64,000 nt of DNA, taken from contig CM000431.1 in assembly GCA_000165345.1 (NCBI GenBank), positions 384,001 to 448,000 on the forward strand, read 5' to 3'. The number at the start of each line of letters is the position of its first letter. Within the stretch, counting starts at the first letter, position 1. Shown piece by piece: positions 27,859 to 31,415 of this stretch. The notes below the pieces were generated by a model. The model did not search any database. It was not told the origin of the DNA and saw nothing but the letters and a program-made list of their open reading frames with translations. Made by a program: the position numbers and the translations under genes.

Positions 27859-28269
27859 TCATAATGCATCATCTTCCTTACTACCTCTTGATCTAATAGA
27901 ATTATTTATCCACTCATTCTTGGAGTCTCCATTTCCATTTATACTGTCTGAAACATGAAGGACTTTAAAAACGCCTTTGTTTAATTGACAAACTATCGAA
28001 ATTAACCTTCCTTTTTGGACGAGTTCCTCAATGAGTCCCCTATAAGTCTTTATAGTATCTTCATGGAAATTGTCACAGTTTGCATCATTCAGCTTGTCCT
28101 TGATTGAAACTCTAATATTGGAGGTTCCGTCATCCAACGTAATCATATCCAATTCTCCATCTTGATCTATCTCAACATCAACCACAAAACCGTGAATCCA
28201 ACAACAATCTCCATCTTCCAGAATCTTCTCTGGAACCTCGCAGATGAACATTTTTGGTGTGATTTTCAT
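27859..28269 (-). CDS. Small hypothetical protein, probable OB-fold (RMI2/Stn1/RPA-like).
   Basis: CCWIHGFVVDVEIDQDGELDMITLDDGTSNIRVSIK resembles OB-fold cores such as RMI2 ([29 protein letters not shown]). This is weak. Confidence 0.35.
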   Translation of the reverse strand: MKITPKMFICEVPEKILEDGDCCWIHGFVVDVEIDQDGELDMITLDDGTSNIRVSIKDKLNDANCDNFHEDTIKTYRGLIEELVQKGRLISIVCQLNKGVFKVLHVSDSINGNGDSKNEWINNSIRSRGSKEDDAL

Positions 28270-28534
28270 CGTTTCCCCTCTAATTTACACACAATTACAC
28301 ATGAAATTAACCTTTTCCTTTAGTCCTTGCTTTTATTATTTTAATAATGAGAGATTCTGTATATTAACTAAGTTATACAACAACTTTTGTACCTCAGCTC
28401 CATTTAGTCTGTAAGAAGAAATCTTTTGGAAAAAAAACTTTCATCTCATAATTTTTTTCTTGTAATTCTTTTTCGGTACCGTACCCACATGAGTTTGCCG
28501 CTCGTTTCTAATATTTCCAATAAAAATTACGCGT

Positions 28535-28547
28535 TTGGCGCCAATTG
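28535..28547. promoter_or_regulatory. E2F-like box TTTGGCGCCAATT at the centre of a bidirectional promoter.
   Basis: It is about 270 nt from both the minus-strand OB-fold gene start (28269) and the plus-strand four-exon gene start (28812). Confidence 0.5.
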
Positions 28548-28811
28548 TGAATTTAAAGATGAAATTAGAGTTAGAAAAAGGATAAATATTGAAATAGAAA
28601 AATCATTATGTAGATAATAATGATAAAAAGAGGAAGAACCGATTATTTGAGATAGAGGCAGAGTTTGCACACATTTACTAATTTTGCTTCATTCCTTTAG
28701 TTGGCGAGCTGAAGGTTAATAGAGGGTTAGATGGTTTAGACTCCAACTATTGTAAATAATAATATTAAGTTCGGGATTTCGAAATCGTTCGAGGGCAGAA
28801 CTAAAGTAAAG

Positions 28812-28817
28812 ATGGAG
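28812..28817 (+). CDS. Hypothetical protein, exon 1 of 4 (ATG GAG only).
   Basis: AAAG ATG GAG | GTAAGT: a start codon two codons ahead of a perfect donor. It lies about 270 nt downstream of an E2F box at 28535. Confidence 0.45.
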
Positions 28818-28885
28818 GTAAGTCTTTTTTTGAGATTGGCAATGCTTTATGTAGGGGATTACTTAACTTTCAAAATGTGTTATAG

Positions 28886-28972
28886 AATGAAAAAGAATAC
28901 CAAAAACTGGTATCTAAGTATAAGTATGTCTCTGATATTGTAAAGGAGATAATAAATCACTGCAATTCAAAG
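28886..28972 (+). CDS. Hypothetical protein, exon 2 of 4.
   Basis: Acceptor TGTTATAG|AAT; 29 stop-free codons (NEKEYQKLVSKYKYVSDIVKEIINHCNSK) in phase 0; donor AAG|GTAGGT. Confidence 0.5.
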
Positions 28973-29051
28973 GTAGGTATAGTCTATAGACTAAGATCAA
29001 GATTTATTTTTGTTACTTATAATATTTTGATTTTTTTATTTCGTAATGCAG

Positions 29052-29126
29052 AAGTTTGCGACAAGTGATTTAAGCTCAATGATTGTTCTATTGGAAGATT
29101 TAGAACAGAAAGGTATTTTTGTTGAG
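29052..29126 (+). CDS. Hypothetical protein, exon 3 of 4.
   Basis: Acceptor TAATGCAG|AAG; 25 codons (KFATSDLSSMIVLLEDLEQKGIFVE); donor GAG|GTAAGA. The alternative donor at 29113 would break the frame. Confidence 0.5.
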
Positions 29127-29209
29127 GTAAGACTAATGAAGTAGGAGATTTTTTATTACAGAATACAGTAGAGCTTTTATATAACTCATCTGTTTTGTGT
29201 TTTCTATAG

Positions 29210-30238
29210 GATTCTGATATTGAGTTTGAGAGAAAAGTGTTAGGACTTCTAGAATTTGAAATGGAGACTATGTCGAGGGAGTACGAGCAGCTTAAGAATA
29301 GTATTTTAGAACTAGCAAATGGTATTTCGAATATATCTGAGAATAAGAATCTTCCAATTCTATTAAATATATTAATGGATGGAATAGGTGCTTACAATTC
29401 TATGATAAGTAGACAATCAAACTTTACGGATTCCATGCTAGAAATGTCATTTTGGTCGATTGAGTTGATGGACACTATTTATGCAACTAATGGAGGAATG
29501 ACGACTTTGTTAGATTATACTTTAGAAAAGATCCAAGACCAATTTCCATCAATATTGAATACTTTTGACGAAATAAATTACTTGGATAAATTTTCCACAA
29601 GGTATAAAATTTCAGAAATTTATAGAGGATTAGTTAGGTTAAACTTTGGACTTGACCAGAGAATTAAATCATTAGAGGAGATGATAAATAAGAGGCAGAA
29701 ATCCAGGAACAAATCAAAAGCTTGGGAATTATATAATAGAGAGGAGGTGTTATTGAAGATCAACAATTTAAGAGAATTATCAGATTTCCTAAAGTATGAA
29801 TTCATTTCTTTAATCAAAGATATTCTCTTTTTCTCAAAATACCTTGGAATAGATGATGAACATAATTCAGCGATTAATAGTAGCCATGAAACTGATACAG
29901 ATAGCATTAAAGGGAGCTATGATGACTTAATCTCTGAAATTGAGACAGTTTGCGAGATTTTCCAAAATGGACAGGTCCACAAAACAAGAGAAATAATGGA
30001 TAGGATCATATCAAATTTAGATGTAGAGGAATTTGAAGAAATACTTGGTGCATTTAACCTTTTGAATTGGCTCAAAGGTAGGGTTTCCATTTGTTTAGGT
30101 AGAAACCTTGAAAACAACATTGAAGAGATCTCAGCAATTTGCAGCAATAAACAACAAGAATCGAGCAGTAGCGACCTTGATAAAGATGATGAGAGACTAT
30201 TAAATCACCAGGAGACTCGGTATTACGACGAAGACTAA
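29210..30238 (+). CDS. Hypothetical helical protein, exon 4 of 4 (about 399 aa in total).
   Basis: Acceptor TTTCTATAG|GAT at 29208-29209 joins in phase 0 to the long ORF. The track shows this ORF from GTG 29237, which has no ATG of its own. Confidence 0.6.
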   Translation, partial: DSDIEFERKVLGLLEFEMETMSREYEQLKNSILELANGISNISENKNLPILLNILMDGIGAYNSMISRQSNFTDSMLEMSFWSIELMDTIYATNGGMTTLLDYTLEKIQDQFPSILNTFDEINYLDKFSTRYKISEIYRGLVRLNFGLDQRIKSLEEMINKRQKSRNKSKAWELYNREEVLLKINNLRELSDFLKYEFISLIKDILFFSKYLGIDDEHNSAINSSHETDTDSIKGSYDDLISEIETVCEIFQNGQVHKTREIMDRIISNLDVEEFEEILGAFNLLNWLKGRVSICLGRNLENNIEEISAICSNKQQESSSSDLDKDDERLLNHQETRYYDED

Positions 30239-30419
30239 AGTAGAAAAGAACAGAGAAAGATAAGGGGGAGAGAAAGAAAAAAGCCGTTACGTAATATATC
30301 GTTCATTCAAAGTAGAATGTATGCAAGCACCAGTATCATAGCCATTATAATACAGAATAATAGCTTTAGATGAATTAGGACCACGTCCTCTATTAATTGT
30401 TTTACATACAAAAATTTGA

Positions 30420-31415
30420 TTATATTGTCATTTCAACATTAATATTCTGAGTATTAGTATTTAACCATGGATGCTGAAGGGCTTCCAATGCAGTGATTCG
30501 CTTCTTAGGACAATATTGCAACAATCTGAATAACAGATCAACCCCAGCCTGATCAAGGTTTGGAAGAAGTGCATGGAGATTCAACTTTGGATTCACCTTC
30601 CACTGAGGAAATACGCTTTTATAGCAAGGAAGCTGAGTAACCCCTGGCCAATTACTCTCATTTGCAGTTCCAAGAAGCCTGAAAATATAAAATAAAGTAT
30701 CAATTTCACTGTCTCCCGGGAATATAGGCTTTCCAGAGATCATTTCTACCATAATACAGCCTACACTCCATAAGTCAACGCTACAATTATAACATCTTTG
30801 TCCAAGAAGAAGTTCAGGTGCACGGTACCATAATGTAACAACTTCGTGGGTATTTGGCTTTAAAGGAGGAGTAAAGGTTCTAGCAAGGCCAAAATCTGCA
30901 ATCTTAAGAGTGTTTCCTGAATCACTTAATAATAAATTTTGTGGTTTTAAATCACGATGTAAAATCCTTTTCCCGTGGCAGAAAGCCAAACCGCTGAGTA
31001 GCTGACGTAATAGAGACTTGACCTGGTTTATAGAAAGACCCTTTTTCCTGTTTAGTCTTAAATATCTTCTCAAGTCTGTCTCGCAATACTCAAAAATAAG
31101 CCATATCTGCATGCCCGTGCATGATACTTCCAGCAGCGCTACTATATTTGGGTGTTTTAACTCTCTTAATAGGACGATTTCTCTTATAGCTGTTGAAGGC
31201 AGTCCAACTTCATCCAATATCTCATCACTGTCAAACCTAATCTTTTTTAAGGCAACAACTTCCCCAGTATCTTTTCTTAAACCTTCCCAAACAATACCAT
31301 AAGTGCCTTCTCCAATCACTCTAACCATACTATAGTTTTTTTCTAGGCCTTGAGTATCTTCAAAAGTGCTTGTACATTCTGTTTGGCAGCCTACTGTGCT
31401 TGAGTGGACCTCCAT
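30420..31415 (-). CDS. Cyclin-dependent kinase (Cdc2-related, PSTAIRE-type).
   Basis: GEGTYGIVWEG, VALKKI, the cyclin-binding helix GLPSTAIREIVLLREL, HRDLKPQNLL, DFGLAR and WYRAPE. Confidence 0.85.
   Translation of the reverse strand: MEVHSSTVGCQTECTSTFEDTQGLEKNYSMVRVIGEGTYGIVWEGLRKDTGEVVALKKIRFDSDEILDEVGLPSTAIREIVLLRELKHPNIVALLEVSCTGMQIWLIFEYCETDLRRYLRLNRKKGLSINQVKSLLRQLLSGLAFCHGKRILHRDLKPQNLLLSDSGNTLKIADFGLARTFTPPLKPNTHEVVTLWYRAPELLLGQRCYNCSVDLWSVGCIMVEMISGKPIFPGDSEIDTLFYIFRLLGTANESNWPGVTQLPCYKSVFPQWKVNPKLNLHALLPNLDQAGVDLLFRLLQYCPKKRITALEALQHPWLNTNTQNINVEMTI

Follow-up and report, generated by a model that had tools for sequence, protein, structure and literature searches.

The window analysed here comprises 64,000 nucleotides (nt) of the Cryptosporidium parvum genome (GenBank assembly GCA_000165345.1, contig CM000431.1, positions 384,001 to 448,000 of the forward strand). 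At window positions 28812 to 30238 it carries a gene that an original prediction, made from the letters of the DNA, had resolved into four exons, the first with only 6 coding nt. The locus is almost certainly the chromosome 3 gene cgd3_1500 (also CPATCC_0032460 and CPHLJ_3g1500), an ordinary four-exon protein-coding gene. On rebuilding the model, we recovered every position as proposed, including the GT..AG donors and acceptors, phase 0 at each junction and introns of 68, 79 and 83 nt (Table 1). The spliced coding sequence is 1197 nt long and encodes 398 amino acids (aa) followed by a stop codon; the figure of 399 aa given earlier had counted the stop.

Table 1. Features of the cgd3_1500 gene and its product, in window coordinates.
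Feature	Position	Strand	Description
Exon 1, coding part	28812-28817	+	ATG GAG, Met1-Glu2; followed by GTAAGT
Intron 1	28818-28885	+	68 nt, GTAAGT...TTATAG, GC 31%, phase 0
Exon 2	28886-28972	+	87 nt, residues 3-31, NEKEYQKLVSKYKYVSDIVKEIINHCNSK; donor GTAGGT
Intron 2	28973-29051	+	79 nt, GTAGGT...AATGCAG, GC 23%, phase 0
Exon 3	29052-29126	+	75 nt, residues 32-56, KFATSDLSSMIVLLEDLEQKGIFVE; donor GTAAGA
Intron 3	29127-29209	+	83 nt, GTAAGA...TTCTATAG, GC 28%, phase 0
Exon 4	29210-30238	+	1029 nt, residues 57-398, stop TAA
Region aligning with the FH2 core	29213-29578	+	residues 58-179

The three junctions read GAG/GTAAGT..TAG, AAG/GTAGGT..CAG and GAG/GTAAGA..TAG (a slash marks the exon end), all of them consensus-like U2-type GT-AG boundaries. 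The acceptor contexts are TGTTATAG before position 28886, GTAATGCAG before 29052 and TTTCTATAG before 29210, and the start codon at 28812 has A at -3 and G at +4. The TAG acceptor of intron 3 is itself the in-frame stop that precedes the long open reading frame (ORF), and the frame is open from 29210 onwards. Two previously proposed starts lie in exon 4: the GTG called mechanically at 29237 (Val66) and the ATG of the old annotation at 29261 (Met74). The earlier remark that this ORF has no ATG is therefore right about where the mechanical call begins and wrong about the frame itself, which contains the ATG used for annotation in 2004. In the C. parvum sequence, retention of any one intron leads to a premature stop: after 43 codons for intron 1, through a frameshift for intron 2 and after five codons for intron 3.

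The apparent micro-exon at the 5' end is no splicing oddity, because the transcribed first exon also includes the 5' untranslated region (UTR) and the 6 nt are its coding part only; describing exon 1 as just ATG GAG was accurate for the coding sequence and too narrow for the transcribed exon. The three introns are typical of the C. parvum genome in size and composition. Reannotation of the C. parvum Iowa genome with RNA sequencing (RNA-seq) and full-length cDNA raised the share of genes with introns from 4.3% to 10.8%; these genes have 2-10 exons, and their introns average 99 nt in length and 22% in GC content (Isaza et al., 2015; PMC4637869).

A gene model of this kind could arise as a chance assembly of upstream segments, since AT-rich DNA abounds in GT and AG dinucleotides and in short open stretches. 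By our own estimate, a stretch of 25-29 codons is stop-free by chance about 10% of the time at the given base composition, and a 6-nt exon alone carries almost no information. We therefore shuffled the 940-nt upstream region 300 times (mononucleotide shuffling) and enumerated all models that start with ATG, use GTARG donors together with YAG acceptors and have introns 45-150 nt long. Any model at all was permitted in 10 of the 300 shuffles and a model with three introns in one, and no shuffle (0/300) gave a three-intron model adding at least 50 codons. The real upstream sequence gives a three-intron model that adds 56 codons. Together with the cross-species alignment described below, in which the 11-nt block ATGGAGGTARG is invariant in eight species while its flanks are about 48% identical, this makes chance assembly extremely improbable, and the alignment in itself effectively refutes it.

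For that comparison we collected the orthologous loci of C. canis, C. meleagridis, C. ubiquitum, the chipmunk genotype I, C. felis, C. xiaoi (L008) and C. ryanae (L009), together with Cryptosporidium contigs from the Logan runs SRR31861040 (L006) and SRR31860986 (L007) and a locus from GenBank assembly GCA_001865355.1 (L010), which we take to be that of C. andersoni. Exons 2 and 3 were located by tblastn upstream of exon 4, in separate frames. A DNA alignment was then made for eight Cryptosporidium species; the identity, gap and codon-position figures that follow are pairwise means over it.

The block ATGGAG/GTA(A/G)G is present without exception in the eight species, while the 60 columns preceding it are 48% identical. 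GT stands at each of the 24 donors and AG at each of the 24 acceptors, NAG ends every exon, exon 2 ends in AAG/GT in 8/8 species, and an A stands at -3 of the ATG in each of them. Exon 2 is 87 nt long in seven species and 90 nt in one, the result of a single 3-nt insertion. Exon 3 measures exactly 75 nt in ten species, while that of C. andersoni has 78 nt. The introns of the eight species vary between 53 and 125 nt (62-79 nt for intron 1 and 53-125 nt for intron 2) and leave remainders of 0, 1 and 2 on division by three, so that no multiple-of-three constraint is seen; with C. andersoni included, intron 3 spans 55-191 nt. Identity is 1.00, 0.69 and 0.68 in exons 1 to 3 and 0.50, 0.47 and 0.54 in introns 1 to 3, and the number of gap columns per pair is 0-0.8 in the exons and 10-35 in the introns. 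Differences at the first, second and third codon positions are 0.28, 0.23 and 0.44 in exon 2 and 0.30, 0.17 and 0.47 in exon 3, a periodicity that the introns do not have. The spliced products are open and similar in 8/8 species. The exons thus evolve as coding sequence and the introns as non-coding sequence, and the intron positions are common to the orthologues. Conservation of the exon structure in other Cryptosporidium species, which had been proposed as a check, was borne out at the DNA level in the species examined.

These figures also bear on a simpler structure, in which the gene is a single exon translated from an internal methionine (ATG 29261, Met74, or else Met77) and the upstream 'exons' are untranslated or not transcribed. 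An in-frame ATG does exist at 29261, Met77 is nearly invariant, and starts at Met74 or Met77 were chosen in XP_626725.1, XP_667809.1 and the C. ubiquitum, chipmunk-genotype and C. felis models. However, Met74 is replaced by other residues in C. canis, C. felis, L006 and L007. The length, frame and codon-position bias of exons 2 and 3 are maintained in 8-11 species while the intervening sequences drift, and the single-exon model has been replaced by newer RNA-seq-guided annotations. We consider a single-exon gene very unlikely.

Equally slight is the chance of a different 5' structure, either a start at ATG 29046 (two exons, 368 aa) or retention of intron 2 (three exons, 423 aa). Both models have been deposited, the first for C. 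meleagridis UKMEL1 and the second for C. hominis UKH1. ATG 29046 lies within intron 2 in frame with exon 3, and our enumeration recovered the corresponding one-intron, 27-codon model in the real sequence; in C. hominis UKH1 intron 2 reads through in frame with 25 extra residues, and in C. meleagridis it is 75 nt long. Yet the intron-2 ATG is found only in C. parvum and C. meleagridis, its place being taken by TCC in C. ubiquitum and by ATA in the chipmunk genotype. The 79-nt intron 2 of C. parvum runs into a stop when retained, the variable length and the identity of 0.47 given above for intron 2 speak against a coding role, and the preceding exon 2 shows the conservation expected of a coding sequence.

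The four-exon layout is common to the intestinal species and the gastric C. andersoni. In C. andersoni all introns are again in phase 0; they measure 63, 121 and 191 nt, and the first three exons 48, 93 and 78 nt. Only three exons are present in C. xiaoi and C. ryanae, with the ATG directly in the 78-nt equivalent of exon 2 and with the 75-nt exon and introns 2 and 3 kept. The regions that document this variation around intron 1 are positions 2697-3060 of L008, the corresponding part of L009 and positions 3001-3700 of L010. Among the aligned loci, the 6-nt coding exon is characteristic of the intestinal species, C. parvum to C. felis. Since intron 1 is present in C. andersoni and absent from C. 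xiaoi and C. ryanae, it is either old and was lost in the latter two, or the start moved there. The locus neatly illustrates how introns can change among the species of a genus.

The two Logan contigs deserve a separate remark. Their orthologues are 65-69% identical to the C. parvum protein and distinct from those of all named species retrieved, and their introns 2 and 3 are longer, at 86-125 nt. Their probable source is Cryptosporidium species that have not been sequenced or named.

The original prediction implied that its four-exon model was new. It is not: public annotations for several Cryptosporidium species already contain it. A protein search with the reconstructed product, which had been proposed as a check, returned 100% identity over 100% of the length to deposited C. 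parvum proteins, identifying the locus as the same. An exact-sequence cluster look-up gives, for C. parvum, KAL5369499.1, QOY42499.1 (CPATCC_001142), WKS76892.1 and WRK31384.1, with CPATCC_0032460 and CPHLJ_3g1500; it also gives the 398-aa C. hominis proteins CUV05014.1, OLQ18860.1, PPS92804.1 and KAL3128964.1 and the 397-aa C. tyzzeri protein TRY52672.1. Full-length models are likewise available for C. meleagridis (cmbei_3001500, 397 aa) and C. canis (OIY81_577, 398 aa). In C. parvum assembly GCA_048859185.1 (CM109963.1, 1.1 Mb) the annotated span is 501-1927 of the fetched locus, that is, 1427 nt equal to window positions 28812-30238, and this locus differs from the window by one mismatch in 2427 bases. 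Our model accordingly shows no difference from the current C. parvum models cgd3_1500, CPATCC_0032460 and CPHLJ_3g1500 in either the 398-aa product or the 1427-nt span, and CHUDEA3_1500 (C. hominis), CTYZ_00002866 (C. tyzzeri), cmbei_3001500 and OIY81_577 have the same four-exon layout as C. parvum.

The model has been public since at least the annotation of C. hominis UdeA01 (CUV05014.1; 2015 reannotation, PMC4637869) and the 2022 CPATCC annotation (PMC8744675). C. hominis UdeA01 was annotated in the 2015 paper, which gives CHUDEA3_1500 as the orthologue of cgd3_1500 and, in a supplementary table, a dN/dS (ratio of nonsynonymous to synonymous substitution rates) of 0.19 for the pair (PMC4637869). 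A full-text literature search for cgd3_1500 returned no paper, that supplementary table being the sole mention. For the gene model itself our analysis adds little beyond independent confirmation of the GenBank model and a clean comparative argument.

Older and automatic annotations tell a different story, and the expectation that single-exon calling would truncate the protein proved correct. The 2004 Iowa II model (XP_626725.1/EAK89129.1) has 325 aa and starts at Met74 (METMSREY...); the TU502 model also has 325 aa. The models of C. ubiquitum (324 aa), the chipmunk genotype (324 aa), C. felis (302 aa), C. xiaoi (279 aa) and C. ryanae (289 aa) are shorter still, and prokaryote-style calls on Logan contigs give 333 aa from the GTG. 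The 368-aa UKMEL1 model of C. meleagridis starts in intron 2, at the equivalent of ATG 29046, and the UKH1 model of C. hominis has 423 aa. Compared with the aligned DNA, the models of C. ubiquitum, the chipmunk genotype I, C. felis, C. xiaoi, C. ryanae and UKMEL1 appear to be truncated at the 5' end, and that of C. hominis UKH1 appears to retain intron 2. All of them look like annotation errors. The models of the five named species and genotypes other than UKMEL1 and UKH1 (279-324 aa) start at internal Met codons, although their DNA contains the conserved upstream exons and the GT..AG introns. This list of probably mis-modelled orthologues is of value for curation.

How the gene would be expressed follows the four-exon model. 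Transcription would start somewhere in the ~540-nt intergenic region upstream of 28812, which is divergent because the upstream gene (27859-28269) lies on the other strand. The pre-mRNA would then be spliced at 28817/28886, 28972/29052 and 29126/29210, with removal of three short U2-type introns, and translation from ATG 28812 would yield the 398-aa protein. In this scheme ATGGAG would be used twice, as the start codon and as the exonic half of the 5' splice site (GAG/GTRAG, against the consensus NAG/GTRAG), and this dual role may be why ATGGAG/GTARG is invariant across species. Some points weigh against the scheme. The exon 1/2 and exon 2/3 spliced junctions had no match in two exact scans of metagenome contigs, and no Logan contig carried the spliced 398-aa ORF. 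Support from RNA is indirect: the introns of the CPATCC annotation are stated to be 100% supported by RNA-seq (PMC8744675), a blanket claim that covers the annotation as a whole and is not specific to cgd3_1500. Finally, additional internal initiation at Met77 might occur as well, since that residue is nearly invariant.

Start-codon-proximal introns, in which the first coding segment is the ATG and a few bases, are common in ribosomal-protein genes of yeasts and other compact genomes. cgd3_1500 resembles them in having a GT..AG intron right after the first one or two codons and an exon end that doubles as part of the 5' splice site. It differs in not being a ribosomal-protein gene, in its two further short 5'-proximal introns, and in the variability of the arrangement within the genus, the first exon being 48 nt in C. 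andersoni and the intron absent in C. xiaoi and C. ryanae.

Within the 200 nt before the start there are upstream ATGs at 28608, 28620 and 28731, opening ORFs of 1-11 codons. They would be upstream ORFs of the transcript if the 5' UTR reaches that far.

Our second question was what the protein is. cgd3_1500 is annotated everywhere as a hypothetical protein without a domain. Its product is restricted to the genus at the level of sequence and predicted to be all-helical, with a highly diverged FH2 (formin-homology-2)-like fold as the most likely assignment, one that we would place just on the favourable side of even. Four independent methods point weakly to this fold, which may be the only new element of the locus. 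Given the state of the evidence, the protein is described as FH2-like in fold and is not filed as a formin.

Searches with the C. parvum sequence by itself were uninformative: no Pfam family matched above threshold, FH2 gave no hit at all, and a single-sequence search of the PDB found no relative. Across orthologues, Pfam FH2 (PF02181) appears below threshold in 6 of 11, with a best E of 1.6e-4. An exhaustive profile search of 1.84 billion representatives returned Cryptosporidium clusters and one outsider, an 814-aa protein (P0022; E 1.6e-4) in which a proline-rich stretch is followed by GNFMN and whose close relatives carry PF02181. When the orthologue alignment was compared with a formin alignment in hhalign, the two matched with E 6.3e-5 over 116 columns; the matching part of cgd3_1500, residues 58-179, aligns with the FH2 core around GNFMN and the KLIDIKS...LLHYL segment that follows it. 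An AlphaFold2 model built from the 11-sequence alignment is all-helical, with a predicted template modelling score (pTM) of 0.62, and the top Foldseek matches of this model are the FH2 domains of DAAM1 and mDia1, at probabilities of 0.98-0.99. As far as a predicted model can be relied upon, its three-dimensional fold would be that of FH2. Within the genus, D113, G114, A117, Y118, N119 and M121 are invariant.

A number of observations weigh against the FH2-like assignment. The FH2 match of the C. canis orthologue reaches 13.9 bits, below the Pfam gathering threshold of 34.8, and the hhalign probability is only 64.6%. The mean predicted local distance difference test (pLDDT) score of the AlphaFold2 model, from its alignment of 11 sequences, is 64.7. 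The Foldseek matches have E values of ~0.02 and TM-scores of 0.27-0.35. The GNxMN motif is absent, the aligned segment being LMDGIGAYNSM with the pattern DGIxAYNSM, and long helical proteins attract generic helical matches.

Matches of the latter kind were indeed encountered and set aside. In one of them, between the orthologue profile and HIV-1 gp41 HR1 constructs in the PDB (2xra_A, E 2.9e-5), LLEMSFWSIELMD is aligned with LLQLTVWGIKQLQ at residues ~112-160 (window ~29375-29520), which we judged a helical or compositional coincidence. We took the same view of a match to ribosomal protein S5 in the profile search of the PDB. A Peroxin-13_N match, below the cut-off in 5 of 11 orthologues, was judged spurious because Cryptosporidium is not known to have peroxisomes.

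If the FH2-like assignment holds, the protein departs from known formins (PF02181; Bni1p, mDia1, DAAM1, Cdc12, INF2) in several ways: its Pfam match is below threshold, DGIxAYNSM stands in place of GNxMN, and it has 398 aa in total with a short part before the core. P105 and P169 are the only prolines in the whole protein, so that no FH1 tract is present. There are 57 residues before the aligned core versus ~160 in the matched formin, and ~220 residues after it. The pLDDT is below 50 for residues 1-57 and 361-398. In formins, the N-terminal lasso and knob subdomains are required for the tethered dimer and for actin binding. From these sequence features, a degenerate FH2-like cytoskeletal or regulatory protein is more likely than a processive actin nucleator, the latter being disfavoured because there is no FH1 proline tract and no GNxMN and because the N-terminus is probably too short for a full lasso and knob. 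The more specific proposal, that cgd3_1500 encodes an unrecognised, Cryptosporidium-restricted, FH2-derived minimal formin-like protein, devoid of FH1 and GNxMN and probably of lasso and knob, that might serve the actin/formin system as a regulator or partner and not as a nucleator, is a tentative one whose chances we rate slightly below even. In the literature, cgd6_4150, cgd8_2450, cgd8_1500 and cgd2_3850 are given as the formins of C. parvum, without cgd3_1500 (PMC2715856). The FH2-like assignment, if it holds, would offer a first clue to the function of a 'hypothetical' protein confined to the genus and would add a candidate to the few Cryptosporidium actin regulators beyond the four listed formins.

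The surroundings of the gene are stable. Where the retrieved locus is long enough, gene order is constant: PP2C, a small minus-strand gene, cgd3_1500, a minus-strand CDK-like kinase and a RESC6-domain gene. The 3.5-kb contig L006 carries only the cgd3_1500 orthologue and the kinase. The small gene is the divergent neighbour at 27859-28269 on the minus strand. It encodes 136 aa, and its synteny is conserved throughout the species examined apart from C. felis, in which it is not called. No Pfam family matches it, and its C. ubiquitum orthologue has a 'faint' precomputed match to RMI2 (PF16100). Within exon 4, two antisense ORFs lie on the minus strand at 29620-29907 and 29917-30147, which we assume to be by-products of the coding strand. 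No intronic or overlapping RNA gene emerged from an Rfam scan of positions 28200-30450, whose single hit was an RT-6 fragment below threshold at the edge. The palindromic sequence TTTGGCGCCAA occupies positions 28534-28548, ~270 nt before the ATG and within the divergent intergenic region; it resembles the E2F-like GGCGCC motif reported upstream of many C. parvum genes.

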